From Azolla caroliniana (taxonomy: Eukaryota > Plantae > Polypodiophyta): DNA of 64,000 nucleotides. Where the stretch lies: NCBI GenBank assembly GCA_043228905.1, contig JBHGNT010000007.1:11966001-12030000 (forward strand), written 5' to 3'. Made by a program: the position numbers and the translations under genes. Positions within the stretch are counted from its first letter, which is position 1; the number at the start of each line of letters is the position of its first letter. The notes below the pieces were generated by a model. It saw nothing but the letters and a program-made list of their open reading frames with translations, ran no database searches and had not been told where the DNA came from. Shown one piece after another: positions 6,116 to 51,424 of the stretch.

Positions 6116-6306
6116 GCAATATACCTTGGGAATAGTAAAGGTATTTACTTCTCTTTGAATATATAAATTTGGTTCTTATTGATTCAGTCTTTTGAGCTTG
6201 GTTTTACCAAGTAGAGTGTAGTGCCACAATGGAGATGACTATTTGAATATGTAAATTGACTTGCAAACTTTGCACACGTAAACTCAATGTTCCGAATCTT
6301 TGAAAT

Positions 6307-9300: not shown

Positions 9301-10121
9301 TGTAACCGACCCTCCTCGGACTACAAAAGGAGGGGAGGAAGACCGTTATAAGAATCCATTGTTTTAAGGGGGAAGGTGCTGCCGGTTGCATGTGGAGTGT
9401 CTTGGTTTTTTTGCTGCGTGCATTCGGTGAGGGAAGGTGAGGCCTTTGCTCGTATAGGAAGCTCGCATAGGCCCGGGACTGCTTGTATTCTTCTCTATCT
9501 TTGATACATTAGTTGAATATTTTGGCATTGTTGTATCTGGGTATTTTCCCTCTGTGTCCTCTGTCTTAGTCTCTCTATGTAGCAATTGGATAGAAGAACC
9601 TGTTCCACACAACCACCTTGAGCTATGATCAAGACATAACAAACCTACCACATATGTCTCATACCGTTGTCATGGAGGATTCCGGCAAAAGGGAGAAAAG
9701 CTCGCCGACCGCGTGTGAATGGGGGTGTGCATAGATGCACATAAAAAGAGTCTTTGTATAAACAAATGTAAATAAGTTGAGTATAATAGGTACTTTATTA
9801 TCCCAGAAGAAAAGGTGAATTGGATAGAAGAATCTGTTCCAGACAACCACCCCGAGCTATGATCAAGATATAGCCAACCACCCTAGCTATGATCAAGGAG
9901 GGGAGGAAGACCGTTATAAGCATCCATTGATTTGGAGGGGAAGGTGGTGCCAATTTGCATGTGGAGTGTTTTGGTTTTTTGCTATGTGCATTCGGTGAGG
10001 GAAGGTGAGGCCTCTGCTCGCGTAGGAAGCCCATGTGATCCCGACTAGAGGCTCATTGGTTTTGTGCGTGTGTCTGTAGAGTTTAAAGCTCCGTCTCTGG
10101 CCCAAGGCCGGTTGTATTCTT
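6307..10121. repeat. Complex tandem array (satellite) seeded by a Gypsy LTR end
   Basis: Recurrent modules such as GGATAGAAGAAC..CCGAGCTATGATCAAG and GACCGTTATAAGAATCCATC. Near-identical units at 352-bp offset (ORFs 8091/8443 and 8340/8692). The start matches the reverse complement of the LTR end at about 19527-19663. Confidence 0.85.
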
Positions 10122-11280
10122 TGTTAAGAAGGCGCTACAGCTCTTCTTAGTGTAGTGGCATATCGTGATGTGCAGGATTGTTTAGGCTTCAAAGGAAGAG
10201 AGAAAGGAAGGGGGAAGGAGACTCACGTCTGTAACAACCCAAAAAATGTTCTTTTTCATTACATAGAAAAACCTCTCTCTTCTTCTGACATTACTGTCCT
10301 ACTCACTCTTAGTTCTTTTACCTAAGTATATAAGTGATTTACATATTCAACTAATTGGTTGTGAGTAGCTAATTAGGAACGAGTAGCTAAATAGTTGTGA
10401 ACAGGTAAATAACTATTTTACTTATAACTATAGTAGTTAATTTCCTAATAGCTACTATAGAAGATCTAAGTTACCAATAAGCATCACATGCTTTTGTTGA
10501 ACATGTTTCTTAACCCTCCCCCTCAAGCTCAACTTGTCCATTCTTAAAATAATCTTCAGTCTTCTTTCCTTCATACTTTCCAACTATCATACCAATGCTT
10601 TTAACTCCCATCATGTCCCTGAACCGTGTATTTGTTTCTATGCTTAGTCCCTTCATAAGAATGTTAGCAACTTGTTGATTTGTACTTACATACAACAGAT
10701 CCACTTCTCTAACAAAGTGAAAATGCACTTTAATGTGCTTTGTTCTTGCATGGAACACTAGGTTTTTTGCGAGCTAAATACTGCTCATATTGTGACACCA
10801 AATTGTGCTTGCACCATCTATATACTCTCCCAAATAAGCAAAAAATTTTTTGATCCAAACTTCTTCATAAGTAGCTATTGCAACTCCTCTATATTCAGCT
10901 TCAATACTTGATAATGCGACAATAGCTTGTTTCTTGCTACTCCATGAAATAACTGCACTTCCCAATGTAAACATATATCCACTCGTGGATCTTCTATTAG
11001 TTTTGCTTCCAACCCAATTAACATTTGTATATCCTTCTAACTTTATGTCCACATCAGCCCTGTAAAATTGTTCATAGTTTTTAGTAGCTTTTACATACCT
11101 CAAAATTCTTCTAATACCGTTGGCAATTGCATAAACTGGCTGGCTAATCCAACTGCATAACTTAAATCAAGTCTTGTTATAGTCAAGTATATGAGGCTAC
11201 CCACCATAGACCTGTACATGTTCACATCTGCAATTTCTACTCCCAAATCAGCCCTAAATTTGCAGTTCTTATCCAACGAA
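10122..11280 (-). mobile_element. Copia family C fragment (RT end, RNase H, PPT, decayed 3' LTR about 10122-10515)
   Basis: Peptides RYVKATKNY, RRSTSGY and FHARTKHI closely match the pol at 34517-37609. The LTR resembles 32559-33123. Confidence 0.85.
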
Positions 11281-12027: not shown

Positions 12028-12599
12028 GTGATGTGGCGTGTCCAATGGGAGAAATTGTGAAATCGTGTGGTTCCACGCACATTACACAAACGATTTTAAA
12101 CATGAAAATTAGCCTAGGGTCTAGTGGCATTCAAGTGCATATAGAGGGGTACAAGCAAGATTTCAACCTTGCACCTCCAAGATAGAAGACATTTATCTTA
12201 CCATTAGGGCTACTACCAAGTACTTTACATACATATATTTTTCATATTCCAAAGGCATAGCAAACAACCGTACAAAACCGTGTGCACAAAACCATGGTTT
12301 TGTGCATGCCACAAGAAAAACTGTGTGCCCAAAAACTATGGGTCCAAGCCCATGGTTTTGTGCACGTTAGAAGCATGGATAGACCTATAAAAACCGTTGC
12401 AAGGCTAGTGTAACGGGGGGCTCAATATGTGATATCATTATCATCACCATTTGTCACATGACGACAAGATTTGAACTCTTGACCTCTTGTATATGGTCAA
12501 GTGTTGTGTTCTAACCAACACATCCAAATATATGGTCATGTTATGTATATCTTAGTACATTATTAGTAGATTATCTATTTCAAGTTCTAGGAGTTTTTA

Positions 12600-12686
12600 G
12601 AAAGTTCTAGAATGAGAAGGTTCTAGAGGGTTCTAGAATATTCTCCGGAATATTCTAATGCATGTACTTCGAATCACAGTATAAAT
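12600..12686 (+). promoter_or_regulatory. Heat-shock-element-like nGAAn arrays plus TATA box in the LTR U3
   Basis: GAAagTTCtaGAA at 12600-12612, TTCtaGAAtaTTC at 12631-12643, TATAAAT at 12680. Repeated in the 3' LTR. Confidence 0.6.
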
Positions 12687-13562
12687 ACTTGTAACCTCCT
12701 TGGTCCCTTTCAAGGGATTCAACATTAGTCATTGACACATCAATATAGTGTTCTCGTTTCACCCCATCTTGTCTCCTTGACTTCTATCTCTTTCTTCCTC
12801 GTCACTTCTAGCTCAAGTTCACAACCTGTTGCTCATAGTCCCATCATCCGTGCTCCGTCCTAGTCTGCACTTGGTGTGTTTGTGACAGTTTGAATCCCTT
12901 CAAACTAGAAGCATTACCCATCTTCATCATTGCCCTTGCTTCTAGAGTTACCATTGTCACTGTCATTGGTTCTAGCGTTACCATCATCAACATCCCTTCG
13001 TTTTCTCTCTTCCTCGCTATCTCTATCTCTTAGTTTCTTTTCGTCATCGTCTTTGTCTTTTCTCTCCTAGTTTCTTCTCATCTCTATCTCCTAGTTTTTT
13101 CTCATCCTTCACTTCTCTATCTCCTAGTTTCTTCTCACCATCATCTCTATCTCTGCACTTCTTATCATCTTCCACATCCCTATCTTGCATTTTTTGTCAT
13201 TGTTATCCTTGTCCTTGTGCTTCCTACCGCTTTCATCTCTATCTATGTGTTTCTTATTATCTTTGTCACTTTCCTTGCATTTCCTATCACCTTCATCCCT
13301 ATCTTTGTGTTTTCTATCATCCTTTGTATATGTGTCTTTGTGTTTCTTCAGAACCTCAACATCTCGATCTCTATGTTTCTTATCCTCTTCATCTCTTTCT
13401 CCGCTTCCATCATTGCCATAGTCAAAGTCATTGCTTCCAAAGTTGCTTCGTCAACATCATTGCCTTCATTGCTTCATGTTCGACATCATCATCTTCAACC
13501 CTCTTGTTGTCATCATCAACACTACTTTGCCTAGCCGTCATTGTTGTCAAGTGTTCCAGTTC

Positions 13563-14350
13563 TCGGTGAGGACCGTGCAGGGTTGCTCACATCCATTGGT
13601 GTTTGTGTCTCCGGTGAGGACCACACATGGTCGGTCATGCCCTTTGGTGTTCGCATCTCCGGTGAGGACCGTACATGGTCTCTCACGCTCGTTGGTGTTT
13701 CAGTTCTCGGTGAGGACCGCACATGGTCGCTCACATCCATTGGTGTTCGTGTCTCCGGTGAGGATTGCACATGGTTGCTCACGCCCATTGGTGTTCTAGT
13801 TCCCGGTGAGGACCGCACATGGTTGCTCCTTTCCATTAGTGTTCGTGTCTTCGGTGAGGACCATACATGGTCTCTCATGCCCGTTGGTGTTCGTGTCTCC
13901 GGTGAGGACCGCACATCGTCGCTCACACTCGTTGGTGTTCGTGTCTCCGGTGAGGACCGCACATCGTCGCTCACGTCCGTTGGTGTTCCAATTCCCGGTG
14001 AGGATTGCACATGGTCGCTCACGCCAATTGGTGTTGTTCTCTTTGGTGAGAACCGCACATGGTTGTTCACTCATGTTGGTGTTCCTATCTCCGGTGAGGC
14101 CCGTACATGGTCGCTCACACTCACGTTGGTGTTCTAGTCTCCGGTGAGGACTGCACATGGTCGCTCACACTCATGTTGGTGGCCCAGTTTCTAGTGAGGA
14201 CCAGACATGGTCGCTCACACTCACGTTGGTGTTCCATTCTCCGGTGAGGACCGAACATGGTTTCTCACGCTCACATTGGTGTCCAGTCTCCGGTGACGAC
14301 CACACATGGTTGCTTGTGTTCACCCGTGCTCCTATTTCTGGTGAGGACTG
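13563..14350. repeat. 48-bp tandem repeat (about 16 copies) inside the non-autonomous element
   Basis: Unit approximately CCGGTGAGGACCGCACATGGTCGCTCACGCCCGTTGGTGTTCGTGTCT; period 48 (13611 to 13659). Confidence 0.92.
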
Positions 14351-14989
14351 CTCATAGTCACTCACATCTCAACATACTTTGGTTTTCCCTTTCGGCTCAC
14401 CCCTACACCACACATTCGAAAAGGTGGCCGTAAAGAGGGGGATAATGTCACAGACATGACAGAAAGATTTGAACTCTTGTATATAGTCAATTGTTGTGTT
14501 CTAACCAACACACCCAAATATATGGTCATGTTATGTATATCTTAGTACATTATTAGTAGATTATCTATTTCAAGTTCTAGGAGTTTTTAGAAAGTTCTAG
14601 AATGAGAAGGTTCTAGAGGGTTCTAGAATATTCTCCGGAATATTCTAATGCATGTACTTCGAATCACAGTATAAATACTTGTAACCTCCTTGGTCCCTTT
14701 CAAGGGATTCAACGCCAGTCATTGACACATCAATATAGTGTTCTCGTTTCGCCCCATCTTGTCTCCTTGTGTTTTATCTCTTTCTTCCTCGTCACTTCTA
14801 GCTCCAAGTTCACAACCCGTTGCTCATAGTCCCATCATCCATGCTCTGTCCTAGTTTGCGCTTGGTGTGTCCGTGACACCATCAATATAATATTCTTCTT
14901 ATTCTTCTTCTTCTTGTTTATCTTCTTCTCGAGTGTACAAATTTCTGATCTTCTCAAATGTAACATTGTTTCCTCAAATCTTACATTCA

Positions 14990-15583: not shown

Positions 15584-17100
15584 CCAAGAATGTGTCTTGC
15601 TGGACCGAGGTCCTTCATGGTAAACTTCAACCGCAATTGCTGAACGAGTTCGGCAAGCTCTCCGGCTTGCTAACTGGAGATTAGCATGTTGTACACGTAG
15701 ATAATGAGCAAGATTGGTGACCCATCTCGAGCTGTTTTCATGAAGAGACAGTGGTCCTCATTAATCTTTGAGAAGTTGACCGACTAAATGAAGTCATCGA
15801 ACTTCTTATACCATTGTCGCGGTGCTTGTTTCAAGCCGTATAGACTCTTCCTGAGTCAGCAGACTAGATGTTCTTGGCTGGGTGCCACAAAGCCTTTCTG
15901 CTACTCCATATAAATTTCCTCCTCTAGATCACCATGGAGGTATGCCGTTTTGACATCTAGCTAAATCAGCTCCACGTCCTCGGTTACCACAACGCTGAGC
16001 ATGAATCTAAGGGTTGTCATTTTCACCACTACTGAAAAGATTTCGTCAAAATCTACACTATATTGTTGTTGAAAACCCTTAACTACTAGTCTAGCCTTGA
16101 ATTTTGGCGGGCCGAATCAGACGTTTCTTTGACTCGATAGACCTACTTGCACGAAAGAGAACGTCGATTCTTCGGGAGTGCGACCAAGTTCCAAGTTTGG
16201 TTTGCTCGGATGGAGTTCATCTCAGACTCCATTGCCAGATGCCAGGTGGCCAAATCGGTAGATGCCGATGCTTCTTCATATGATGTCGGTTCTCCGGCAT
16301 CCGTAAAGAAGATTCTAGGAGAGTATCTCTTGGGGGGTTACGACAGTCTCTCGGATCTTCGAGGTATGGTTGGACTAGTCGCATCGGGTGTCGAAGTCGA
16401 ATAATCTAGAGCCGAACCATTCAGTTGTTCCGAGTCAAGCGTTGTCGAGTGAGGGCTGGAGGATTCGGCTAACAGTGAAGCCGATCTCGTGTTATGGGTT
16501 GGGGCTTCATGAAGGGTCGCCACTTCGGAAGAAGTTACCCTTCGGACTTCAATAAGACTTTCGGCCGTCTTATGCATAGCCGACTCATTGAACACTAAGT
16601 CCAAACTTCGAAAAATTTGTATGTGCTTGGGGTCCCAGAGTCGGTATCCGATTTCGTCATCTAATCCATAACCTAGGAAAATACATTTCCTAGACCTTGG
16701 TGCAAGTTTGCGGCGATCATCTTTCGGTATGAGGGCATATGCCTCGCACCCAAAGATCCTTAGCTTGTCGTAATTCGGTTTAATTCCTAAGGTATCTAAG
16801 TCCTAGAAGCCTACTCGGTGACATATTGATAATGTGTACTGTCGTAAGTAGGACCTCCACCCAGAAGCCATCTGACAGTCCGGACTGTTGGACCATGGAA
16901 ACTATCGTTTCTTGAATTGTCCGATTCATCCTCTCGACAATTCCGTTTTGCTCCGGACGATAGGGTGTCGTATATTCACGTCGAATGCTGCGTTGTCGGC
17001 AAAATTTGACAAATTCTTCAGATTTGAACTCTCCTCCATTATCGATCCAAAGACATTTGAGTTTTCAGCCAGACTGGTGTTGAAATTGAACCTTCTCATA
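15584..17100 (-). mobile_element. Degenerate Copia integrase-RT fragment of a different (Tnt1/Tork-like) family
   Basis: Minus-strand motifs QNGIVERMNR, KCIFLGYG, HGDLEEEIYME and SLYGLKQAPRQWYKKF, with many stops. Confidence 0.78.
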
Positions 17101-17104
17101 TTGA

Positions 17105-19663
17105 AAAGGTTAAACTTTGGCCCATTCCTCGTAATATTTGTGAACTGCGATCATTCTCAGGGAAAATCCAAAAATCAATTTGTAACTATTCGAAATTGAC
17201 TACGCCATTAATTGACCTTTTAAAAGGTCATCCACGTAAGTCTGTCAAACCAATTGCATGGAATGAACAACTTGACAAATCATTTGAGACACTTAAAGAG
17301 CATGTGTGTCTGGCTCTCACTCTTCTATTACCGGACCCTTCTAAGCCTTTCTCAATCGAAACCGATGCTAATGATTATGCTATTGGTGCCGTTCTTTATC
17401 AAGGCGGTCACCCTATTTCTTTTGAAAGTAAGAAGCTTGATGTTGCTCAATCTCGGTATTCAGTTCAAGAGAAAGAATTGTTTGCGGTAATACATGCACT
17501 TAAAACATGGAGGCACTATCTCTATGGAAATAAATTTGTGGTTACAATAGACCATCAATCATTGAAGTATTTTTGTGACCAGCCAGATCTTGTTGGTCGT
17601 TAAGGCCGTTGGGATGACCTTATGCAAGATTTTGATTTTTCCATACGGTATCGCAAGGGTTCTATGAACATTGTTGCGGATGCTCTTAGTTGCATTAAAG
17701 AAGTTAACATGCTAAGCTTCATGGAAATAAAATCTGATCTTTTAGATCACCTTCGAGGGAAATACCTTCATGACAGTTATTTTTCGAAATACTAGACGAA
17801 AGCCGAATCTGGTTTAGATGCCAATACTAGCACCCTACCCTCGAAGGCGACCTTTCACATTACAAACGGTTTGCTCTACCGTATTGGAAAGGTCTATGTT
17901 CCAGATTTACCAAACGTAAAATAGAAAATTCTTCATGAATGTCATGATGCACCATCTGTTGGTCATCCTGGAATACAACGCACACTCATTCTCATCTCGA
18001 GTACTTTTTTTTGGCCTAAGATGCACTCTAACGTGCATAAATACGTAACTCAATGCTTCCAATGTCAGATTAATAAGTCAGAACGACTTAAAGTTGTTGG
18101 TCTTTTACATCCCTTAGATATTCCCAACAACAAATGGGAAAGTATCTCGATGGATTTTATTGTTAGTTTACCTCGTACACAGAGGGGTCATGATGCCATT
18201 TGGGTTGTCATTGACAGAATAACAAAATTGGCCAGATTTATTCCTATGAAAACCGCTCAAAATTGGCTTATCAATTTGTTGATGAGTTATTTCTCTTTTA
18301 TGGATTACTGATGGATATTGTTAGGATCGAGATTCCAAGTTTACTAGTGACTTTTGGCCTCAGGTCTTTAAGAAACTAGAAACTACGTTGAGCATGAGTT
18401 CCGCAGATCATCCTCAGTTTGATGGACAAACTGAACTAGTTAATCAAATTATTGAGGACATGCTTTGAGCTTATGTAGCAAAAACCCCTTCTAAGTGGGA
18501 GCAATACCTTCCTATCTTAGAATTTGCCTATAATAGCTGTAAACATACATCCATTGGATATAGTCCTTTTATGTTGATGTATGGTTTTCAGCCACGTGCC
18601 CTAGTTGATGTCACGATTCATCGTGATACATTAGACAGTACACACAATTTTTTGCAAGACATGAACCAAATGTTGCATATTGCCAAAGAGAATGTCAACA
18701 CGGCTCAAGATCGTGCTCAATTTTATGCTGATCAGGATAGACGTCCTCGTGCATCTACTATTGGTCAAAAAGTTTGTTTGCATGTCCCTACTGACTCTAC
18801 GGGCAAGTGCGCTAAGTTAGCCCCACGATATTGTGGCCCATTTGAAATCCTTAAGCGGGTTGGGTCATCTACTTATCACCTTGCCTTACCCCGTAACGTT
18901 GGTATTCATCTTGTTTTTCACGTCAATCGTCTAAAACCATTTTTAAGCTCTGGTAATAACACCATGACAATCCAAGATCTTGTAACATTAGAGGATTTTT
19001 CTTACAAACCTCATGTTCCTGAACGAATTCTTGACTCTCACGTTTACGTTCTAAAGAGATTCGGCTATTCAAGATCAAATGGATGGATAAACTTATTGAT
19101 GATGCCACATGGAAACGCGAGCATACTCTTAAGCCGCAATTTCCTCACTTTATATTGCAAGAGTGCAATCTTCTGAAGTAGGGGGGAGTATGTTATGTGC
19201 ACATAATGCTGGTGAGGGTAGGTCACCAATATTTACATTAGTGAAGGGTATGTTCCCTAATGTTAAAAAGGGGACTAATGATTGGATAGAAGGAGTGATA
19301 GGTGCATGCACTATCATGATTTGGACAACCAATGAATGGAGAGCCTTTTAGAAAGGCACATCTATTCAAGGGGACTAGGAAAAGGTATAAATATGAGGCT
19401 TAGCTACCCTCATAATCACATTACGTCAGAAGGCTGTTGTCTTAGACACCGGTGGTGTGGGCTAGGCTTTCGTCTCGATCATCGTGTTTATCTCTTCCAA
19501 GGTATTAGTCATCCTAATATCCGGCGGTATGGGACATCGGTGGTAGGTTGGCTATGTCTAGATCATAGCTCGGGGGTGGTCGGGTGGAACAGGTTCTTCT
19601 ATCCATTCTATTTTCCTTCTTTTACTTTAGTTTGGTCTATTGATTTGTAATAGACTCTTAACA
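17105..19663 (+). mobile_element. Ty3/Gypsy chromovirus 3' half (RNase H, integrase, chromodomain-like end, PPT, 3' LTR 19191-19663)
   Basis: ETDANDYAIGAVL, WRHYLYG, KWESISMDFI, KLAPRYCGPF and PERILDS. PPT AGGGGGGAGTA then TGTTA...TAACA. Confidence 0.88.
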
Positions 19664-30700: not shown

Positions 30701-31122
30701 TTTCAAATGTCGAAATCCGACAACTCCCTCTGTCAGGAACAGTACTAAGACAGAGAAGGAATTAGTACTAAAAGAAGTATTAGTACTAAGAGAGGTGAAC
30801 AACTCTCGAGAGAAGGAAAGAGTGAATGAGAGGGAGGGAGGGAGAGAGAGAGAGAGAGAGAGAGACATGATAAGAAAAGATATATATATATTATGTGAAG
30901 AGAATGTATAGTAGTAGCTAGGAGGCTTAAGACTGGCGTTGAACCGATTTGGTTCGAAATAATGCCTTGTGCCTCCTTTTATAGTGTTCTAAGGAATACT
31001 CTTGAAGTTTCTAGAATGTTCTAGAGAAATCTGGAATATACATCAATTTTTCTATAATAAAAAATGAAAATAACATTTCTGTATAGTCTAATGGTCAAGA
31101 GCTCGACCCATGTAGCATAAGG

Positions 31123-32558
31123 TCATGGGTTCGAGTTTTGCCATATCATGACACTATCCCCCCCTTTAAAACAACGAGTGTTACGAGTCGTTTTGGATTG
31201 AGGACCCGGTTTGTCTGGATATTGACGATGGAAGTCTTCAAGAAGAGCATGATCATTGGTCACATTCTCTATTAGTTCCCAAGTACGCTCGTTGGGACTA
31301 TATCCTAGCCAATCGACTAGATAGTAGAGCTTGTTGCGAACAATCTTGGAATCAAGGATGGCGGCAACCTCGTACTCAGGTCCATCTTCAAGCTCGATCG
31401 GGGGTGGAAGCTGTGTAATACATCCTGGGATGGTGCTCTCTTGATAGGGTTCGAAGAGAGAACTATGAAACACCGGATGGATCCGAAGTTGCGGAGGTAG
31501 ATCGAGACGAAAAGTGACATCATTAATCTTTCCTATAATACGGAAAGGACCTAATCGCTGATAATCCAACTTCTCGCATGGGTGAGTAGTCTTGATGTGT
31601 CATCGTAGTAGTCATACCCGATCTCCAATGTTAAAACTGGATGGGAGTTGATGGTGATCCGCATAAACCTTGTGTGTTTGTTGAGCTTGTTGGAGATGAG
31701 TAGATAAATCGGCTTGTATCTTGCGTAACCGCTCTAAACGATCCTCTGCTCAAGGATTTGTGGACAACTTTAGGGTTTCAAAGACACACCACCGGGGTGA
31801 GAACCCGTATAAGCATATAAAATGGCGTAACTTTAGTCGATGCGTGGACAGAGTTATTGTAGGCAAATTCGGAAAAGTGGAGAATATCTACCTAGTCATC
31901 CTGATGATAACTTAGAAAGCACGAAGATACTGCTCCAGTGTTTGATTTGTTCGTTCTGCTTGGCCATCCGTTTATGGGTGGTAGCCAGAAGAGAGGTTAC
32001 ACGTGACCTTCAGCATTTTAAAAAGGTGCTTCCAGAATTTCGATACGAACTGGGCTCCACGATCGCTGATGATACTATCGGGAAGGCCATGATGCCGACA
32101 TACTTCACACATGACAATTTTAGCGGTTTCTTCACTGGATATCTCCTTAGTACATGGCAAGAAATGAACCATCTTCGTATATCGATCTATGACTGTTAGA
32201 ATCGCTTTGAACCCCTTAGAGACTGGAAGATCTGTGATAAAGTCTAGAGCAATGGATTGCCACAGCTTGATTGGAATTGGTAATGGTTCTAATAAACCAT
32301 ATGGATGATGCCTTGGCATTTTCGCTCTGCAACATGTATCACAAGTCTCAACAAAATCTTCGATAAATTGTTGCATACGGGGCCACTAAAATGACCGTTG
32401 TACTAAATCTAATGTTTTAGTACTACCAAAATGCCCAACTGTATATATGTCATGACAGTTTTGGACTACTCGAAGGCGGCAAGAACCATTAGGAACATAC
32501 AAGAGTTCATTAAAGAATAGTAATCCATCATGGTATTTGAATTGCCGATAGTCCGTAC
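31123..32558 (-). pseudogene. Chromovirus integrase, GPY/F motif and chromodomain
   Basis: CDTCCRAK, WQSIALDFITDLP, RLGPFRI and EYEVAAILDSK..YYLVDWLGY..ERTWE. Interrupted by stops. Confidence 0.9.
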
Positions 32559-32648
32559 TGTTGAGAAGCAAGCTCAACATGGTATGCGATGCTTATTGGG
32601 AAATAAGCTATAGTAGTTATTTAGCTACTTGTGAACATAAAGGAGAAA

Positions 32649-32810
32649 CAGCTAATTAGCTACTGACAGCTAATTAGCTACTGACAGCTATTTAGCGACT
32701 GACAGCTAATTAGCTACTGACAGCTATTTAGCGACTGACAGCTAATTAGCTACTGACAGCTATTTAGCGACTGACAGCTAATTAGCTACAGGCAGCTAAT
32801 TAGCTGCATA
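32649..32810. repeat. 18-bp palindromic minisatellite in the LTR (9 units in 5' LTR, 5 in 3' LTR)
   Basis: Units CAGCTAATTAGCTACTGA and CAGCTATTTAGCGACTGA. Confidence 0.92.
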
Positions 32811-33262
32811 CGTAAGTAACTTATTACTTAGGTAGAAAGTAAGAGAGTAAGAAAAAAGGAGAGAAGGAGATATACAGGAAGTAGAACTCTGTGAGAGAGA
32901 TAGAGTATAGTGAGAAAGAACTCAGAGAGTGAGAGCAAGAGAGAGAAACAAACGAGAGCAAGTAGAGCTCTGCGCATAATAAAATAGAAGAAGTTTTTGG
33001 CTGCTACAGAGGTAAGTCTCCTTCCCCCTTCCCTTCTGTGTTTGAGCAATAAACGATCTAGCACACCACGATCCGCCGCGCACATAAGAAGAGCTCGAGT
33101 GCCTTCTTCACGTTTTCTTAACATGGTATCAGAGCAGAGTTGCTCATAAAGAAGAGTACAAAAGTGCATAGATCTGAGAAAGGTATTTCTCTGTTTGCTG
33201 ATCTGAATCAGAAAGTTACTTGTTGAAGTAATTGTAACAGAAAACCTAGGTTGGAAGAGATA

Positions 33263-36200
33263 ATGGCTGCAGAGAATGCGGGCCAAATAGTTACAGAGAA
33301 ACTAGATAAAAACAATTTCCCGGCGTGGAAATTTAGAATGACAAATTTCCTAATGGGGAAAGGATACTGGGATTACATTGAAGGAGACCTAGAAGAGGCT
33401 CCGGAGATCCCAGAAGAAAATGCCACAGCAGCACAGATTAAAGCATTCAAAGATTGGAATCAAGGGGCAAGGAAGGTAATGCATTGGCTCTCACTTAGCA
33501 TCTCAGATTCGATGCTTGGGCACATACAGGATGCTATGCTCCCAAAAGAAGCTTGGGACAGTTTGGTAAAACTGTTTGCAGTAAACACAAAAGCTAGAAA
33601 GCTACAGTTGAAGACTGAGCTAAATACCTTAGAAAAAGGTAAGATGTCAATAAATGAGTATGCCTTGAAAATAAAGAGCATATGTGAATCACTTGCTTCT
33701 ATCAATGTAAAGATAGAAGATGATGATAAGGTAGAAATATGCTTGAGAGGCTTGGGACCCCAATACAAAAGCTTTAAAACCTCTATGCTTACAAGGGATA
33801 GTATCCCAAGTTTCTCAGATCTGATTTCAATGCTTGTAGTAGAAGAAAGGAATCAGATGGATGATGTAAATAAAGGAAATCTTGAGAATGAGGGGCAAGC
33901 CCTATATAATAGTGCTGGAAGAGGCCGAGGAAGAGGCCATGGAAGATTTGGCTCAGCAAGAACCCACAATAATGGTTATCAAGGAAGAGGACAACAAACC
34001 ATTAGAGGAAGAAACAACAACAGAGGCAGGGGGAGCAACCAAGGTAGAGGTAAGCAAACATATGTAAATGATGATGGCTGTTGGTATTGTGGAAAACCAG
34101 GCCACACACAGGCTGAATGTTACAAGAAGCAAAATGATGAGCAAAGAGGAAAGAGACAGCAGAATAACTATGCCCAAACTAGTGAAGATTGTGAAAAAGA
34201 TGGTGCATTTGTGGTACAACATGAGATAGCAGCAGTGGCTGAAAGCTCACAGAAATGTAATGAAGAGTTTACATGGTATGTAGACTCGGGGGCATCTAAT
34301 CATATGACTGGACATGCAAACTGGTTTGAAAGGTTGAGAGAACCAGAGATTCCTGGCTATGTACAGACGGGTGATAATAGTACTCACCAAATAGAACATG
34401 TTGGAGATATTCCATTGTGGGAAGTAAAAGGAAAGACTAAGTATATGTTGAATGTAATGCATGTTCCAAATCTTGCTAAGAATCTGATTTCTGTTGGATA
34501 GATAGTAGAGCAAGGTATGCAAGTAAAGTTTAAGCAAAGTGGATGCTATATAGAAAAGAATGGGAAGCTCATTGCAAAAGGAAAACGACAAGGAAGAATG
34601 TTTATTTTGGATGTTGACATGCCTAGACAGATTTCAGCTATGTTTGCAAATGGAATGAGTGTAGTCTCAGATGTGGAAATGTGGCATAAAAGGATTGGCC
34701 ACATAAGTATGCAAACCCTAAAGAATATGTTGAGAAAAGATGCAGTGGCTGGACTGCCAAAACTGAAAAATTGTGAAATGGGAAAGATATGTGAAGCATG
34801 TCAATATGGAAAGCAAAATAGGTTGCCATTCCCTCATGAAAGACATGTAAGTAAAAATTTGTTGGATTTGGTACATACGGATGTATGGGGACCAACTAAG
34901 AATGCATCTATCGGTGGCTGCAGATTTTATGTAACTTTTATTGATGATTGCTCAAGGAAAACATGGGTGTACTTCATGAAAGAAAAAAGTGAAGTGTTTG
35001 AATGTTTTCGTAAGTTTAAATGCATGGTAGAAAAGCAGGCAGGTACAAGAATAAAATGTTTAAGATCTGATGGAGGAGGAGAGTATTTCTCCAATGAATT
35101 TTCTGATTTTCTATGCAATCAGGGAATAAGAAGACAGTTCACATGTAGATATACTCCACAACAAAATGGAGTTGCTGAGAGGAAAAACAGAACATTGGTG
35201 AACATTGCAAGGGCTTTGATGACAGAGAAGAATATGCCATTGTACTATTGGGCAGAAGCTGTAAATACAGCAAATTATATTCTAAATAGATGTATAACAT
35301 CGGGAGTACATGAAACAACTCCTGAAGAGTGTTTCTACGGAAGGAAACCTAGTATAGAACACTTAAAAGTGTTTGGATGCCTTGCATATGTACATGTGCC
35401 TGCAGAAGTAAGAAGTAAGTTGGATCCAAAGGCAGAAAAATGTATTTTTGTTGGCTATTCAGAAGAACAAAAAGGGTATAGATGCTATAACCCTGTAACA
35501 AAGAAGATTGTGACAAGTAGGGATGTAATCTTTGATGAGTTAGCCAGCTGGTATAGTCCAAAACAGAATCCAGAGACTGATGAAGACAATGAGATTGAAG
35601 ACAAAGACAAATCTGAAAATGTAGAAGACTGCCACAGAGATGGAAGCAAGGTTGGACAGCAAAGTCCAACATCAACAGAATGTTCTGGACCATCAAAAAG
35701 CTCAGATGGTAAATCTGATTCAAATTCTTGGAGTGGAAAAAGTGGACACAAAAAATGTGATGATAAAAAAGGAAAACAGAAAATGCCAGAGTATGAAATG
35801 TTGGATGACTTGTCTAAAAACATGGAAGATGAGGATTCAGATGTGTCATTGGATGATCTTCTTGGTATAAGAGGATTGAAAATCCCTGGTATGGAAAAAG
35901 CATTGAAGGATGCAAATCAGAAACTGAGAAGATCAGATAGAGAGAAAAAAACTGTTGAAAGATTTGGTTATGATACATACATGGCTATGCATTATGCATA
36001 CATGTCTAAGGTGGTACAGATCCCTGATCCAAGTAGTTTTGATGAGGCTAAAACTGAGAAGAAATGGGTGGACGCAATGCAAGAAGAGATTGATGCATTG
36101 GCTGAAAACAAAACATGGGATTTGGTGAAGTTACCAAAAGGAAAAAATGTGGTAGGTTGCAAATGGGTCTACAAGACAAAGCATGATTCCAGTGGGAATG

Positions 36201-37609
36201 TAAGTAGACATAAAGCAAGATTGGTTGCAAAGGGATATGCCCAAATGCAAGGAATTGATTATGATGAGACATTTGCACCGGTTGCAAAGATGGCAACATT
36301 GAGGACATTACTGGCTGTAGGTGCAGCCAGAAGATGGTTTCTTCATCATATGGATGTAAAAAATGCCTTTTTACATGGTAACTTGGAAGAAGAAGTGTAT
36401 ATGTGTCAACCACCAGGTTTTGAAGATAGGAAGCATCCAGATTATGTATGTAAGCTGAAAAAGGCTCTCTATGGACTGAAACAGGCACCAAGAACATGGC
36501 ACAGGGAACTTTCAGATTATCTGAAAAAACTTGACTTCAAAATGTCAAAGGCTGATTCATCATTGTATGTTAAAAGGAAAGATGATTGTATGGTTGTGAT
36601 TCTGATTTATGTTGATGATCTCATCATTGGAGGTGATTTCATGGATGAGATAAGTAAGCTGAAAAGAAATTTGGAAATGAAATTTCATATGAAAGATTTG
36701 GGAGATCTGAGATATTTTTTGGGTATTGAAATCATCAGATCTGAAAGTGGTATATGTGTGTTGCAAAGACAATATGCAACAACTATGTTGAAAAAGTATG
36801 GTATGCTTGAATGCAAACCTATTGGAGTACCACTAGATAAAAACTGCAAATTGAGGGCTGATTTGGGAGCCAAAATAGAAGATGTAAACATGTACAGGTC
36901 TATGGTGGGCAGCCTTATTTATTTGACCATAACAAGACCTGATTTGAGTTATGCAGTTGGATTAGTTAGCCAATTTATGCAACAGCCAACAAAGCCGCAT
37001 TTGGACTGCATTAGAAGAATTCTGAGGTATGTAAAAGCTACTCAGAACTATGGATTGTTTTACAGGGCTGATTTGGACATAAATCTGGAAGGATATACAG
37101 ATGCTGATTGGGCTGGAAGCCAAACAGATAGAAGATCCACAAGTGGATATATCTTTACATTGGGAAGTGCAGGTATTTCATGGAGTAGCAAGAAACAGGC
37201 TACTGTTGCATTGTCTAGTACTGAAGCTGAGTACAGAGGAGCTGCCATAGCCACTTGTGAAGAGGTATGGATTAAAAGATTGCTTGTTGATTTGGGAGAG
37301 TATATAGATGGTATTGTCACAATCTGGTGTGACAACATGAGCAGCATTCAGCTTGCAAAGAACCCAGTGTTCCATGCAAGAACAAAGCACATTGAAGTGC
37401 ATTATCACTTTGTTAGAGAAAAAGTGATTGAAGGAGAAGTTGATCTGGTGTATGTGAATACAAATCAGCAGGTTGCTGATATTCTCACAAAGGGATTGAG
37501 TGTGGAAAAGCATACACAGTTTCGGAACATGATGGGAGTTGTAGACATTGATATGATGGCTGAAAAGCATCATGAAAAAGAAGCTGTAGATAACCCCAAG
37601 AAAGGATAA
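33263..37609 (+). pseudogene. Copia gag-pol polyprotein with a single in-frame TAG at 34499-34501
   Basis: ORFs 33251-34501 and 34517-37609 are in the same frame. All domains look intact (CCHC, DSGAS, HHCC, DDE, YVDD, RNase H). Related copies have Q at the stop position. Confidence 0.93.
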
Positions 37610-38120
37610 GTTGAGCTTGAGGGGGAGTGTTGAGAAGCAAGCTCAACATGGTATGCGATGCTTATTGGGAAATAAGCTATAGTAGTTATTTAGCTACTTG
37701 TGAACATAAAGGAGAAACAGCTAATTAGCTACTGACAGCTAATTAGCTACTGACAGCTATTTAGCGACTGACAGCTAATTAGCTACAGGCAGCTAATTAG
37801 CTGCATACGTAAGTAACTTATTACTTAGGTAGAAAGTAAGAGAGTAAGAAAAAAGGAGAGAAGGAGATATACAGGAAGTAGAACTCTGTGAGAGAGATAG
37901 AGTATAGTGAGAAAGAACTCAGAGAGTGAGAGCAAGAGAGAGAAACAAACGAGAGCAAGTAGAGCTCTGCGCATAATAAAATAGAAGAAGTTTTTGGCTG
38001 CTACAGAGGTAAGTCTCCTTCCCCCTTCCCTTCTGTGTTTGAGCAATAAACGATCTAGCACACCACGATCCGCCGCGCACATAAGAAGAGCTCGAGTGCC
38101 TTCTTCACGTTTTCTTAACA

Positions 38121-40315
38121 CATACCTGGTGGTTGCGACTGTGAACAAGATGCTCGAGAGGGATCAATTTGTGCTAGAATGGCTCGGGCGAAAGCATCGG
38201 TCTTCAAGTCCTCACATATAGTATCGATAACGTGGGAATCCATTGGCATGCCAAAGACCTGTATTGCTTGCAGTCGTGTCGGTCCCAAGATTACTTGCTT
38301 TTGGTTATCAAAAGCTGGCTCGCCGTGATGCGGTGCTAGGTACGAATGTCGTGATAATGCATCTGCCGATAGTCCGTGCTTCCTCGGACGATATGTAATT
38401 TTGAAGTCGAAACGCATGAGGAAGTGGGCCCACCGAGCTTGACGTCGATTTAACACACGAGCGTCCTGAAAGTAGGCAAGGTTTTTGTGGTCACTGAATA
38501 CAGTGACTTGATGAGAGGATCCCTCTAGAAAAGGCCTCCATTGTGTAAAAGAATCCACTATTGCCAATAGTTCCTTATCATGAATTTCGTAGTTGATTTC
38601 GGTGGCGTCAAACTTGCGTGACTGAAAAGCCATTGGATGTAGCTTCTCATCATTACCCCGTTGTGACAGAATGCTCCCCAATGCGAAATCCGATGCGTCT
38701 GCTTCGATAATGAATGGTTTTTCCAGATCGACATGAGCTAGAATTGGAGCCGATGTAAATACCTTTTTAAGACTCTCGAAAGCCATGTCCGCTTCTTTAG
38801 ACCAAACGAACGATTGTCCCTTCCTAGTAAGCTGTGTGAGAGGCAGAATGAGCTTTGAGTAATTCTGTATGAATTTCCGGTAAAAATTGGCAAAGCCTAA
38901 AAAGCATTGCACATCTCGCATCGAACGCGGAGTCTGCCACTCTACCACAGTTTTGACCTTAGATGGGTCCATGGAGATGCCTTCTGAGGAAATGACATAG
39001 CCCAAAAATTCCACCTGGTTGCACCCAAAACTACAGTTTTCCAGCTTTGCATAAAGACCATGTTCTCGAAGTCGTTTTAGTACTAATAGTACATGAGAAT
39101 CATGCTCTTCTTGGGTCTTCGAATAAACCAATAGATCATCCAAATAGATGATCAAACAAACATCCAAGAGATCTCGGAATATATCATTTGCCATGTGCTC
39201 GAAGACTGTTGGCGCATTAGTGAGGCCGAACAGCATGACTGTATACTCGAAGTGCCCATATCTAGTGCGAAACGCGGTCTTCCATTCATCTCCTGGTCGG
39301 ATCCGTACGAGGTTATAGGCTCCCCTCCCCGTAAGTCGATCTTTGTGAAGAACCTGGCACCATTGATCCGTTCTAAAAGGCTTGAGATAAGGGGAAGTGC
39401 ATACCTATTTCTGATTGTCACCTTATTCAAGCCACGATAATCTACAACGAGATGAAGTGATCCATCCTTTTTCTTGACGAAGAAAATGGGTGCGCCGGCT
39501 GGAGATTTCGAATGCCGAATGAAACCATTTTCCAAATTCTCCTCTATATAGGCTCGCGGGACTTCTAGCTCGGTTGGTGACAAACTGTAGATCGGTCCCC
39601 ATGGTGGCTCTTTCCCCGATTGTAAATCGATGGGGCAATCATACGGTCAATGGTGAGGAAGCATATTGGTTTGTACTTTATCGAACACATCGTCATAATG
39701 ATGATACTTCTTCGGAAGTTGAACAATGGACTCCTCTTTAATGGTGTCTAAGGGCTTTACGGATATTGCGAAGAGAAACATTTCTTCCTTGCGTCCTTCT
39801 TCCCGCAACTGATGTAGCGAAATGGTTGCAATCTCATGAGTAGATCCTCGGGCTTTTCGATACAGGATTTCTCTTGTTCTCCAATCTACGTCTGGGTTAT
39901 GTAATTCGAACCATGGTAATCCTAAAACAATGGGGTGTTCTGGGATGCTAATTATATTAAATGATACTACACATGCTAGATTATCTAGGACAATATTAAC
40001 GGGCTCTGACTCTTCTATGATATTTCCGGAAGCAATGGGACGACCATCAATGACTACTACAGAGGCTGGACACAGGAGTTTTCTGAGTGAAATTTGATGA
40101 GCTTGGGCAAAGTTCCTATCCATGAAGCAAGAATTAGCTCCAGAATCTAGAAGTGCTAAGACATGTACTAGAGGGGTACTTTTAGTACTAACTATTACTT
40201 GGGCTACGAACACATTGCTAACTTGCTTAGAGGGAATGGAGCCACTAATGGGTTGCACAGATCTAGGGTTGTCCAACCAAACGGCTCCTATTTTGGCTGG
40301 ACTTAGTCGTTTAAC
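38121..40315 (-). pseudogene. Chromovirus pol: protease, RT and RNase H
   Basis: [45 protein letters not shown] and EADASDFALG. Contains frameshifts and stops. Confidence 0.92.
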
Positions 40316-41443
40316 TCTTCTTCTAACTGACTAAGGACATCAAATTTGTTCGCTAGATTTGGGCTATTAGTACTATTAGGACTATCAGATATCCCTACTG
40401 AAATAGACTCGGGTTTAGTACAATCAGAACTAGCAACTATTTGGTTTACCTGCCTTCTTGGCCTATGGGGACAGTTTACTGCGATATGCCCTGGTCCACC
40501 ACAATAAAGACAGTCGGTTTGCTCGGCGTCATTGCTTTTCTTCTTCTGATAGCGGTCCACGACAACGTGTGGTATTAATTTCCATCGGAGTTGGAGTACT
40601 TACTGGAGGCGCATTATATGACTCCCTCGGAAAAGGTTTCACTACCACTGAGGCATAGGTAGGCTCTGATCTTGCCCTCAGAATCTGGAATTGTCGTTCC
40701 GAACGTCATTCGAAGAGGTGGTTGTCACATCTCACCGCGCGACTGATTGCTTCTGTTAATGACTTTGGCTCTTCGGGGAAGGTCAAGAGTAAATTCGTGA
40801 CATCGTTGCGTAAACCATAACGAAATTGCTCCATCAATGCGTGATCATCCCAAGGGATATCGGCAGCGAGTAGGCGGAAATCTGCAGCGTATGTGGAGGC
40901 TGGACGGTCACCTTGGCGTAATCGCCGAATTTTGTTGATTGTAGTCCTTATGATGTCAGTATCTCCAAAACAGGCCTTAAACTCACTTATAAATTCTTCA
41001 AAATTGTTTAGTAATGGAGATTCCTTTTCCAACAATGGAGCAAACCATGCTAACGCTGAGCCACTAAGGAGAGTGCCTACTAGTCCCACTCGTGATGCAT
41101 CGGTGGGATATTGAGAAGGATGCATTTGTATCACTAAATGTACCTAATTCAAAAACCCTCTAAACTGTGATCGGGTCCCATCAAACTTCGCAGGAAGACC
41201 GATCTTGGGTTCTTTGTGAATCCCTTGAGTGCTTGATCCTTGTTGTTGTAATGATAGGATAGTCGCTTCGAGTTGTTGTACACGTAACGTCAGCTCCCCA
41301 TGTTGTTGTTGTTTTTCCAACGCTATTTGATGAAGATCCCCCAACAAACGATGATTTTCTTGTTCTAGTGCTACAAATTTCTCTTTTAAGCACTAGAGGC
41401 TCGAGAAAACAGATTGGTATTCCTGAGCGCTAACAGTTTCCAT
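40303..41443 (-). pseudogene. Chromovirus gag (PEG10/Ty3-like capsid plus CCHC knuckle)
   Basis: EPKIGLPAKFDG, LRQGDRPASTYAADF and CLYCGGPGHIAVNCP, with premature stops. Confidence 0.88.
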
Positions 41444-41522: not shown

Positions 41523-41534
41523 AAATCGGTTCAA
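41523..41534 (-). promoter_or_regulatory. Self-priming-type PBS (TTGAACCGATTT on the element strand)
   Basis: Lies 2 nt after the 5' LTR and is the perfect complement of LTR 41751-41762, which starts 33 nt downstream of TATAAAA (41789-41795). Confidence 0.75.
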
Positions 41535-41639
41535 ACTATCAGGAACAGTACTAAGACAGAGAAGGAATTAGTACTAAAAGAAGTATTAGTACTAAGAGAG
41601 GTGAAGAACTCTCGAGAGAAGGAAAGAGTGAGTGGGAGG

Positions 41640-41686
<47 letters not shown>

Positions 41687-42019
41687 AGAAAAGATATATA
41701 TATTATGTGAAGAGAATGTACAATAGTAGCTAGGAGGCTTAAGACTGGCGTTGAACCGATTTGGTTCGAAATAATGCCTTGTGCCTCCTTTTATAGTGTT
41801 CTAAGGAATACTCCTGAAGTTTCTAGAATGTTCCAGAGAAATCTGGAATATACATCAATTTTCTATAATAAAAAATGAAAATAATATTTTATATATTACA
41901 ATGTATAGTCTAATGGTCAAGAGCTCGACCCATGTAGCATAAGGTTATGGGTTTGAGTCTTGCCATATCATGACACCCTCTACGTACACATTGCACTATT
42001 TTGAGCTTGATTCTAAACA

Positions 42020-48202: not shown

Positions 48203-49026
48203 TTATCTGAGTTGCAAGGTTTCCTCTGGCAATGACTGTGGCTTTGGCAGCGTAATGTTAGAACCTCCATTCAAAGTGGCAGCAGAAACTGCTGGTTTCC
48301 TTGCAGCTCGACCCCATTTGATAGCTGAGACCAGAGAATCTCCTTGGGATCCCAGTCCTCTTCGACCAACTAGTTTAACTCCAAGATTTTCACATAAGAA
48401 GACTAACCGCATCTTATCCCCTCCCCTAACCTCCATCAATTCTAAAGCTTGTTGTCGAGATATCATTGTGTAAAGGTGGAGCTGCTGCTGCTGATACATC
48501 TGAATTTGTTGAAATAAAAGCGTTTGTGGTAAAGGAGGCTGATCATTCATCCCGCTCTCATTGACCTTCTTCCTTGCACCCATACCAATCATCACCCGTA
48601 ATAGCACATGTGACTTAAGCTCACTAGTTCGAGGGTCAAAAAGTACAGCAAAGCATCCGAATTCGAGATCAGCTTCTCTGAACAAGTCTGCCAAAAGCGT
48701 AGCATAAGCCTGTGTGTCCTTCAGGATTGCTCGTTCAACTTTTGCAGGAACCAACCTGTTGGCAGCATGCGCGGTTATGTTACCAGCCTCCCTTAAACCA
48801 CTCAGCAATGCACCATGCATAGTTGCTGGGTACCTACGGTTTGTGGCCTCTCCAGCAAAAAATAGCCTCCCATCACCAACACTCTCTGCTAAAAGATCAT
48901 AGTCATCCCCTGATGCACCAACAGCAACGTGAGAATATGATCCAAAACTAAGAGGATCCCCTCCCCATCTCGTACATACAGTCTGGATAGGATCAGGAAC
49001 ACTAATTCCTTGAGGTTCATAAATGC
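48203..49026 (-). CDS. FLD: FLD-type demethylase, exon 2 (spliced protein about 1006 aa)
   Basis: An 85-bp GT-AG intron (49027-49111) restores [10 protein letters not shown]. Motifs [20 protein letters not shown] and the FLD-type C-terminus [14 protein letters not shown]...[22 protein letters not shown] follow. Confidence 0.92.
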
Positions 49027-49111
49027 CTGCCATTATAATAGAACTTAATTAAGTAACTAGGTGGTATCAATAAGGAATGCTCAAAAAAATTACAGTGACC
49101 ACTTTGCCAAC

Positions 49112-51308
49112 CTCTTAAAATCGTCAATACTCGTTGAATTGCCTCTGCTGGATGCATTAGTTCAAAATTGATCGCTGCCTCCCCTGCAACAAGTGCGAGC
49201 AAAAGCGGCCCTCCTGATACAGCTGCATAGCTATAGAACAGAAAAAACTCACCCCTTCTCTCTGAGCTTTCAGCAAGGTGCCCAAAGGTATCAAGTTCAG
49301 AACCCCAGAAAACTCTAGGAAAAAGCATGGCCACCTTGTTTAGCAATCCAAAACCAAGCCTTCGGATCGCATCAAGTTTTCTCTGTGGCAGCTCTGGCTC
49401 AAATTTAATCATCTTCTGCTTCAAAACCCCTAAGGGCACCGTGCATAGAGCCATATCTCCTTCAAAAACTTGATTGGTTGTTATTACCTGTACACCACTA
49501 CTGCCATAGCGAATTGTATGTACCTGTTTCCCGTAGAAGATAGGTATTCCTTCTGCAAGTGCTGAAACCAATCGCACATTACCTCCAGGAAGAAAACAAT
49601 GATCACCCCCCATCTCGTATGGATCATCCTGGTCCCAAAATGCAAGTGAAAGCTCTGAAAGTAGCCCTGCATTTGCATACTCAAGATTTGCAAGGTGCCA
49701 ATCAAACAACTGCCTTTCATCAAGAACTTCTGCAACCCCTGCGTCTTCACGCAAAGTCTCCAGAGTTTGTCCTAATGATATCCCTTCTGCAATCGGTCCC
49801 ATCTGCTCTCTCAATTGGCTAGCTCTATCCAAAAGTTTGTTGAACTGGGACTCAACTTTAGCATCCACATCCACTGCCAAAGGTGACCCATCGGGTTGAT
49901 AAAGGGGACATTTCTCACTTATCTTGTGCAAGGGGATGGAAAGTTGCCTAGCAAGGACACCCAAAGGGTTTCCATGCAATCCAGTTATAACACTACCTCC
50001 AAGATCTGCAGCAGCCACCTGGCCCCCTCCTTCCATTTTCCTGGTGTAAACCCGCCCTCCAGGCCTATTCCTTCCCTCTACAACAGCGACTCGGTGCCCA
50101 AATGCCAATAATTGTCTTGCAGCCGCAAGTCCTGCTAATCCCGCCCCAATGATAACGATTGTGGACTTTGTTCCCTCTTCTGGTATGACTGCTTTCACTG
50201 CTGGTGACACTCCGAAATTGATATAGCCATATGAAAAGAGAAATTTATATGCTGCAGTTACTAGTAACTTATGTTGGCTTCGAATACTTTCCATAACTTG
50301 GGCTTGATCCAACCATGTGTTAACACTCTCTCGCCATCGAGCTAAGATATGGTTTCTTACTTCTATATAATTATCTTGTTCCACATCTCCGATAGTCTGC
50401 ACAACTCCTGCTTCAATCTCTTCTTCTGTTAACGAATCTTTGGGAAAGCCAATGGATGCAGCGATCATCGCTTCTTTTTCTTTGTTTTTATCAAGGTCCA
50501 CTGATTTCTTCTTCTTACCTTTAGCTGGAGAAATCTCTGCACCTAGCTGAGATTGGATCATGACATCCATGAGATTCTCATCATAGCTCAAGGCCCTTGC
50601 CTGTTGCCGAAGGGCTCTCACATTCTTTTTACCGCCTCCTCTGAGCCTCTCCTGTGTTCGTTTTCTTCTCTTCTTTGCGAAGCCATCAGGAACATACTCA
50701 GATACAAGAGTCCTCTTCTTTGCAAAACCCTCTATACTTTTCTTCTTTACAAAGCCCTCAGGGCCATCCTCAGATTCAATACGTTTCATCTTTGCAAGGC
50801 CATCCTCAGATTCTACACATTCTCTTTTCGATGGACCATCTCCAAATTCTACTCTTTCTTTCTTTGAAAGGTCATTCTCGGATTCTAAACTTCTCTTCTC
50901 TGCAAATCCATCCACAGATTCCACACTTTCCTTCGTACCAAATTCATCCTCAGTTTCCAAGCGTTCCTCCTTATTCTCAACTCTATACTCGGATTCCACG
51001 TTTTTATTCTTTTCAAATACATCATCATCGGTGGTAATGTTTTCTTTCATTTCAAATACATCCTCAAATTCGGGTTTCTTATTTGGAAGTCCATCCACGC
51101 AGTCTACAGAGTTCTGCATTGCGATATGAGGAGCTTTTCCCACGGAAACACTACACGAATCTGATGCTCCTGTTTCAGTTATGATAACGGTACTCACAGG
51201 ATTATGCGAGTTGAGAGTATGCTCTGAGACACCACCACCACCACCACCACCACCCTTGTCACTCATGATTCTTTCATCTGCGCCGTCGATGCTTTCACCG
51301 TCTGCCAT
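49112..51308 (-). CDS. FLD: FLD-type lysine-specific histone demethylase (LSD1-like), exon 1
   Basis: SWIRM domain (YIEVRNHILARW..YGYINFG), FAD motif IIGAGLAGLAAARQL, WDQDDPYEMGGDH and catalytic-Lys motif GFGLLNKV. GT donor at 49111. Confidence 0.92.
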
Positions 51309-51424
51309 ACTTTATTCTTACTCTGCCTTTTTTCCTCCCAAGTGGCTGCGCTGCGAGCAGTGTTCAGAAAATAAATAAAAACGATGGGATGGATGGGCAA
51401 GATCGAGAGAAAAACGATATAGAT

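Follow-up and report, generated by a model that had tools for sequence, protein, structure and literature searches.

Priming of reverse transcription by an element's own RNA has been shown experimentally in fission yeast, and within the literature surveyed it has been predicted in plants only from complementarity. The S. pombe element Tf1 cuts its own RNA between bases 11 and 12 (PMC7175516), about 50% of its cDNA carries a copy of the primer-binding site (PBS) at the 3' end (PMC11042837), and its PBS is flanked by further duplexes in a three-duplex "pretzel" (bioRxiv 10.1101/2022.12.06.519325). In plants, self-priming was predicted by PBS complementarity for 83% of 1,500 Tcn1 elements, and also for 89% of 203 elements of the TAR lineage of Ty1/copia, which includes Houba and Osr-1 (Neumann 2019, PMC6317226). 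The sections of that paper used here give moss and club-moss as the only Tcn1 hosts, a size range of 5.5-9.4 kb, gag and pol in overlapping frames in 60% of Tcn1 elements, and an aromatic-cage chromodomain in 95% of them, which is also present in Chlamyvir and Galadriel. According to the sections used of a second study, PCR in 26 ferns and horsetails yielded no Tcn1-like clones (Novikova 2010, PMC2864245). The idea that the Tcn1 group self-primes is therefore not new, and the novelty implied by the initial annotation of the locus described here was overrated, since the same criterion had already led to this prediction (PMC6317226).

We analyzed a stretch of 64,000 nucleotides of Azolla caroliniana DNA, which we refer to as the window. 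The element of interest occupies positions 41975-30731 on the minus strand; it spans 11,245 bp, or about 5.7 kb without a nested 5.56-kb copia element whose flanks read CGTAC and CATAC (Table 1). A 5-bp target site duplication (TSD), GAGGG, is present at 41980-41976 and 30730-30726, and alignment of the two LTRs gave 405 identical and 15 mismatched positions among 420 aligned bases. The 5' LTR has the termini TG...TA; because the 3' LTR ends in CA, the terminal base change of the 5' LTR is private to this copy. The domains are arranged in the Ty3/gypsy order gag, protease, RT, RNase H and integrase, followed by a C-terminal chromodomain (E = 1e-13), so that the chromovirus identity proposed in the initial annotation holds. 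All coding domains are interrupted by stops or frameshifts. The CCHC segment (40599-40306) and the protease frame (40330-39650) overlap in different frames, and the copy has private frameshifts. Its chromodomain has an aromatic cage formed by Y76, W97 and Y100 of window 31150-31599, positions that we take to be the cage by reference to HP1-type chromodomains. A degenerate U3/R pattern has 2,910 matches genome-wide, and the focal element is a decayed copy of a high-copy chromovirus of the Tf1/sushi type, likely Tcn1.

Table 1. Positions in the window of the parts of the focal chromovirus and of the family 2 element.
Feature	Position	Strand	Basis or remarks
5' LTR (439 nt; U3-R-U5)	41537..41975	-	matches 3' LTR; TSD GAGGG on both sides
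TATA box (TATAAAA)	41789..41795	-	sequence; begins at 41795, 33 nt upstream of the 12-mer
Predicted self-primer AAATCGGTTCAA, LTR nt 214-225	41751..41762	-	perfect complement of PBS; covariation; junction and arm-end mapping
Spacer GT, 2 nt, between LTR end and PBS	41535..41536	-	sequence; reads AC at all 37 junction loci
PBS TTGAACCGATTT, no complementarity to a tRNA 3' end	41523..41534 (41534-41523)	-	sequence; tRNA comparison
gag with CCHC knuckle, broken by stops and frameshift	40306..41443	-	PF03732, PF19259, PF16297, PF00098
pol, protease-RT-RNase H part, broken	38118..40330	-	PF13975/PF08284 (weak), PF00078, PF17917
Nested Ty1/copia inside pol, foreign to the chromovirus	32559..38120	+	LTRs 32559-33123 / 37628-38120; PF14223, PF00665, PF07727
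pol, integrase-SH3-chromodomain part, broken	31150..32558	-	PF17921, PF00665, PF24626, PF00385
Polypurine tract	31154..31167	-	sequence; adjoins 3' LTR
3' LTR (423 nt)	30731..31153	-	pair alignment; carries its own 12-mer at 30950-30939
Family 2 LTR element	12452..14878	+	TATA 12680, 11-nt primer 12712-12722, LTR end 12887, GT, PBS 12890-12900

In an RT-RH tree with a midpoint root, the focal element groups with fungal and vertebrate (fish, frog) elements, apart from those of Tanacetum and Closterium, with support of 100/98; besides the query, its 41 rows comprise 24 named and 16 unnamed database proteins picked from 120 listed ones, none of them a named Tcn1, moss or Selaginella element. Among the matches listed, the best named ones show RT-RH identities of 59% for a chytrid, 55-57% for frogs and 39-47% for seed plants. 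The focal element resembles Tcn1 in lacking a tRNA PBS, in having a self-complementary PBS no more than 5 nt from the LTR, in its aromatic-cage chromodomain, 5-bp TSD and size of 5.7 kb, and in its kinship to fungal and vertebrate elements. As judged from its sequence, it likely belongs to the Tcn1 clade in the strict sense. Unlike the Tcn1 elements considered in PMC6317226 and PMC2864245, its host is a fern; the predictions in those papers, in the sections used, draw on complementarity alone, without covariation or rearranged copies. A search for fern Tcn1-like elements in openly available papers found none. A fern host would widen the plant range of the Tf1/sushi group, and it bears on the question of a vertical versus a horizontal origin of Tcn1. 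The focal family also resembles TAR elements such as Houba and Osr-1, LTR elements of plants in which the PBS is likewise complementary to the element's own LTR, but these belong to a different superfamily and the likeness is convergent.

The PBS matches the R region of the LTR perfectly over 12 nt at an offset of 2 nt from the LTR end, within the limits used for Tcn1 (at least 10 nt, 0-5 nt). This perfect complement, 33 nt after TATAAAA, had been pointed out in the initial annotation; the sequence agrees, and when the LTR was resampled 3,000 times under a first-order Markov model, no complement reached 11 nt (best 10, observed 12). Folding of the region 41775-41480 gave a z-score of -6.5, and in an RNA folded from 41762 the helix between PBS and 12-mer has a probability of about 0.91. 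Transcription is predicted to start at 41762, after a CA dinucleotide, and RNase H to cleave between 41751 and 41750. The additional pairing beyond 12 nt that had also been suggested is not conserved, as position 13 pairs in only 4 and position 14 in 20 of 51 LTR-PBS pairs. On the minus strand, the 12-mer forms a short palindrome with the bases just upstream (41770-41751), which is nearly perfect in a sister subfamily; a transcript starting further upstream could therefore fold into a hairpin that hides the primer.

We compared the PBS with host tRNAs. As the initial annotation had stated, no TGG follows the focal 5' LTR, and the comparison with host tRNA 3' ends that it had proposed gave no 3'-end match: among 40 distinct ARAGORN calls of 12 isotypes, an incomplete set in which 30 of the 62 tRNA loci of one search were taken and one call is an overlong record, the longest 3'-anchored match was 2 nt. 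On this set, priming of the focal family by a tRNA 3' end was rejected. Rfam and ARAGORN searches of the LTRs found no RNA gene. Counted from the LTR end and with the spacer included, the first 9 nt can pair with the T-loop of the host tRNA-Asn(GTT), an internal part of the tRNA. This match would suit a PBS bound by a tRNA fragment whose end lies in the T-arm, or by some other host RNA, with the R match as a secondary copy. Such an origin is most improbable, given that the T-loop match is only 9 nt long and internal whereas the R match is 12 nt long and covaries; moreover, half-tRNA priming is confined to Ty1/copia lineages in the sections used of Neumann 2019 (PMC6317226).

The pattern formed by the LTR end, GT and TTGAA occurs 2,367 times in the genome, versus 99 times for a reversed control. 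For the analysis of covariation we used 51 LTR-PBS pairs from loci L001-L060 and the window; the rows are related to one another, some of them are duplicates (window, L001, L002), and the search pattern fixes positions 1-5. Positions 1-12 pair in 46-51 of the 51 rows. At position 8 from the primer 3' end, the pair is C-G in 25 rows, T-A in 17 and G-C in 4. Over the core positions 6-11, 288 of 306 cells pair, versus a mean of 249 and a maximum of 270 when the PBSs were shuffled among rows (5,000 shuffles). The spacing between TATA and the 12-mer is equal in 47 of the 51 pairs, the distance from TATA to the primer end being 42-43 instead of 45 in the other 4. The L037/L099 family, whose RT-RH is only 70% identical and whose LTR is different, keeps the same 12-mer at TATA+33, and a pyrimidine-A step is present at this position in four families. 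Among the first 30 pattern loci, three (L040, L041, L060) were without a match at a TATA and two (L049, L051) had poor matches.

Family 2, represented in the window and at L043, L047 and L059, differs from the focal pair at positions 6, 8 and 9 on both sides, which amounts to three compensatory changes. One base change in family 2 would break the match to the tRNA T-loop yet keeps the match to R, which argues against a tRNA fragment as primer. The interior of family 2 (window 12452-14878) is a 48-bp tandem array, and copies L104 and L108 are likewise tandem inside. In tblastn searches, focal gag, RT-RH, INT and CHD had no match in the window copy, L104 or L108; because of this lack of coding matches family 2 is probably a non-autonomous parasite of the same system. 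The pairing of PBS and R is thus kept with compensatory change in both the sister subfamily and family 2, as seen in the covariation test that the initial annotation had proposed. These changes amount to about two independent events.

A duplex between PBS and R might be structural only, with a role in packaging, dimerisation or transcription control, and priming might follow another route. SM-Tcn1, which is reported without a tRNA or self-priming signal in the sections used of Novikova 2010 (PMC2864245), would be in keeping with such a role, as would the failure to find, in the focal family, the flanking duplexes needed by Tf1. When 8 leaders were folded as single sequences, a long R/U5 duplex appeared in both family 2 copies but in neither the focal leader nor the other 5, and no third duplex was seen. 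Against this, in all families a gap of exactly 2 nt separates the duplex from the LTR end, the place at which minus-strand synthesis has to begin, and the antisense arms of the rearranged copies described below stop at the base after the 12-mer. We regard a purely structural duplex as improbable.

An opposite-strand joint between 41751 and 41535 was first met in a contig of sequencing run X2 (depth 3.5), which prompted a genomic search for junctions consisting of U3, the 12-mer and AC. The joint also appears as a loose end in run X7. All 9 runs consulted, X2 and X7 among them, consist of Logan contigs and are probably DNA, and small word shares in a run do not indicate expression. In the genome, U3 and the 12-mer are joined directly to antisense U5 at 37 loci, versus none for the control and 2,910 normal LTR matches. 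All 37 continue into the antisense U5 end, 30 of them by a strict expression and the others with point changes (L095 for only 7 nt), and in 35 the left arm starts at the first bases of the LTR. Family 2 carries the equivalent joint at 9 loci (control, 0). Small contigs duplicate chromosome loci in three cases (G000:C179, L002; C114, L097; C1097, L115), which means that the assembly contains some redundant haplotigs and that the counts are a little too high; dropping L097, a duplicate of L083, leaves 36 distinct junction loci, and L115 equals L113. The fusion may lie anywhere within the 12-nt homology, and a junction therefore shows that the duplex formed, not where the primer ends.

TSDs flank 16 of the 36 distinct loci: 3 are exact, and the other 13 were found among 18 extended loci (8 exact, 5 with one mismatch), the remaining 5 of which have none. 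No TSD was seen at the examined ends of five inspected units (L068, L070, L071, L091 and L096). Fold-back chimeras are well known as an artefact, and two loci are duplicated on small contigs (L097 and L083, L115 and L113), as might happen if the junctions were assembly or library chimeras. We consider this extremely unlikely, as 35 of the 37 loci lie on the 22 largest contigs with different flanks, 16 have TSDs, and the joint was seen in two other runs (X2, X7).

The antisense arm comprises the whole LTR in 6 of the 36 loci (L065, L069, L070, L089, L091 and L094). In L065 and L069 it ends at the U3 start, so that a U3 end is present on both sides, and the unit has an exact TSD; for these reasons the two units cannot be derived from normal integration. 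L089 and L094 have the layout PPT-3'LTR-GT-PBS-inverted U3, the form expected from a retained and copied primer. These four loci point to a primer that stays at the U5 end of the cDNA and is copied there, although L089 and L094 could have originated from tandem elements. The other 30 loci show a template switch of the antisense arm within the LTR, in most cases onto internal sequence that continues up to a normal 3' LTR; this class includes the extended loci and L072, which has an exact TSD. Taken together, the junction loci look like integrated reverse-transcription errors and, as such, like indirect in vivo evidence for self-priming.

Tf1 RNA is cut between bases 11 and 12, and minus-strand strong-stop DNA is therefore expected to end at the base after the primer, which in the focal family is LTR nt 226, and not at the transcription start. 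We mapped the ends of the 30 arms that switch inside the LTR. With a tolerance of 1 nt, 28 of them stop at or before nt 226: 3 lie within 1 nt of it (L072, L075, L084), 23 stop 3-187 nt earlier and 2 are too short to map. The other two pass nt 226, L077 by 7 nt at a PBS homology and L068 to about nt 141. Twelve arms stop in the 30 nt before nt 226 and one in the 30 nt after it; none of the 30 ends at nt 214. Under a uniform distribution, which is a crude null, P = 0.008 for the three exact ends at nt 226 and 2.5e-7 for the boundary. Decay with distance does not account for the accumulation at the far end, because it would not pile ends up there. Pattern searches at set positions showed no clear peak, with 5 hits (2 independent events) at nt 226, 1 at +1, 2 at +4, 0 at -4 and 2 at nt 214. 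L113 ends at nt 226 by eye and was found by a search aimed at this position, so that it is kept outside the arm-end statistics. Four further candidates were rejected as arm-end cases: L114 (a 6-nt deletion), L117 (no match to the element), L118 (a complex rearrangement) and L149 (a deletion at a microhomology). One near full-length copy, L160 (G000:C22, from about 8497195, + strand), starts exactly at nt 214, the predicted transcription start, and has a normal 3' LTR and neither microhomology nor TSD (n = 1). The pile-up of arm ends before and at nt 226 gives indirect support for RNase H cleavage just 3' of the 12-mer. A tRNA primer, by contrast, predicts strong-stop DNA that reaches the transcription start and not nt 226.

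The same data bear on the possibility that self-priming is real but that the copies were rearranged after integration, by template switching during replication or by inversion at the 12-bp inverted repeat, in which case they would be uninformative about reverse transcription. In every 5' LTR the 12-mer and the PBS form an inverted repeat with about 215 bp between its arms, and a TSD around a unit that runs from U3 to the 3' LTR is also expected after a later rearrangement; 13 of the 16 TSD cases, and L072, take that form. In a genomic template, however, nothing marks nt 226 as a boundary, and still 12 arm ends fall in the 30 nt preceding it versus 1 in the 30 nt following it. No simple inversion, in which an arm to nt 226 is followed by PBS and leader, came to light; the nt-214 pattern admits most leader types, and neither of its 2 hits is one. 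At most switch points there is no clear microhomology to the window copy. In addition, L065 and L069 (U3/U3 with exact TSD) and L089 and L094 (PPT-LTR-GT-PBS) need a molecule that existed before integration. Rearrangement after integration is thus an unlikely general explanation, and it may apply at single loci.

We conclude that in the focal family roughly the first 12 bases of the element's RNA very probably serve as the primer of reverse transcription, in the manner of Tf1. The initial annotation had made the same proposal, and covariation, the lack of a tRNA 3'-end match, the RT-RH placement and the copies joined through the 12-mer all speak for it. In the mechanism that we propose, transcription would start at 41762 and the 5' 12-mer of the RNA would fold onto the PBS. 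RNase H would then cut after the 12-mer, giving minus-strand strong-stop DNA of the structure primer-AC-U5-R that ends at LTR nt 226. The primer would often be retained and copied, which would place a PBS copy at the DNA 3' end. Because the start of R is the complement of this end in a self-priming element, the end is able to anneal to a sense LTR strand and be extended through U3. This would have happened, for about 1% of LTR-equivalents, at the 12-mer of a sense LTR strand, with U3 copied as far as its first base, and the product would have an integrase-competent left end and be inserted with a 5-bp TSD. Annealing of this kind would directly account for the extended 3' LTRs and the U3/U3 units; for the larger class, strong-stop DNA would first have mis-switched onto another strand. 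In an equivalent route, the 3' RNA copy of the 12-mer would act as primer, giving an identical junction.

A wider reading, which we favor with some reserve, is that the integrated errors preserve each step of Tf1-type self-priming, namely the primer joined to U5, the strong-stop end at the cleavage site and the copying of the retained primer. They would then be the first in vivo evidence of this priming mode in plants and a signature by which the priming mode of any LTR family could be tested from an assembly, and their carrier would be a Tf1/sushi lineage with non-autonomous parasites and thousands of LTRs in a fern.

In common with Tf1/Tf2 of S. pombe and the Tf1/sushi group, the focal PBS pairs with the predicted RNA 5' end, cleavage is predicted just after the primer, and a PBS copy appears to be kept at the cDNA end. 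Unlike the 11-nt primer of Tf1, that of the focal family is 12 nt long (11 nt in family 2), and here it is known only from sequence. A second difference is that insertion of PBS-copy DNA is integrase-independent in Tf1 (PMC11042837), whereas the products described here carry TSDs. The word "inverted" is absent from the main text of that Tf1 paper, and a search of openly available papers, including PMC11899658, PMC8282616 and PMC13469084, found no prior description of inverted junctions. What is new here is the fern host and, as indirect support for the duplex, the cleavage site and the retention of the primer, the genomic junctions. The rearranged copies make the prediction of self-priming checkable, as they place the likely cleavage site at one base and suggest retention of the primer as in Tf1. 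The junction signature is short and can be searched for in the moss and Selaginella families, in vertebrate sushi elements and in TAR/Houba families. Each rearranged copy also bears an inverted LTR segment and may be a source of dsRNA directed against the family.

Several other features of the window were noted. In all four LTR families examined, the first 60-70 nt of U3, read antisense, resemble a tRNA-derived A-box/B-box segment (window 41901-41965, +, and 12455-12520, -; L098, L099). A profile of 37 host tRNAs searched against five sequences matched this U3 head in the focal LTRs (E = 3e-4 and 8e-4) and in the family 2 5' LTR (E = 0.02) and had no match in the other two; the segment may be the captured head of a SINE or a Pol III promoter in antisense. 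Degenerate repeats with units of 250-670 bp form a 4-kb array at 6200-10200, and another decayed Ty3/gypsy element (RT-RH-INT, SH3) lies at 15600-19600 on the plus strand, followed by a PPT-like tract. A host gene encoding an FLD/LSD1-like SWIRM amine oxidase is located at 48203-51311 on the minus strand, with two overlapping frames around 49020-49048 that may reflect an intron or a frameshift. In agreement with a fern host, this one gene has identities of 89% (Ceratopteris richardii), 78% (a liverwort) and 65% (Physcomitrium).
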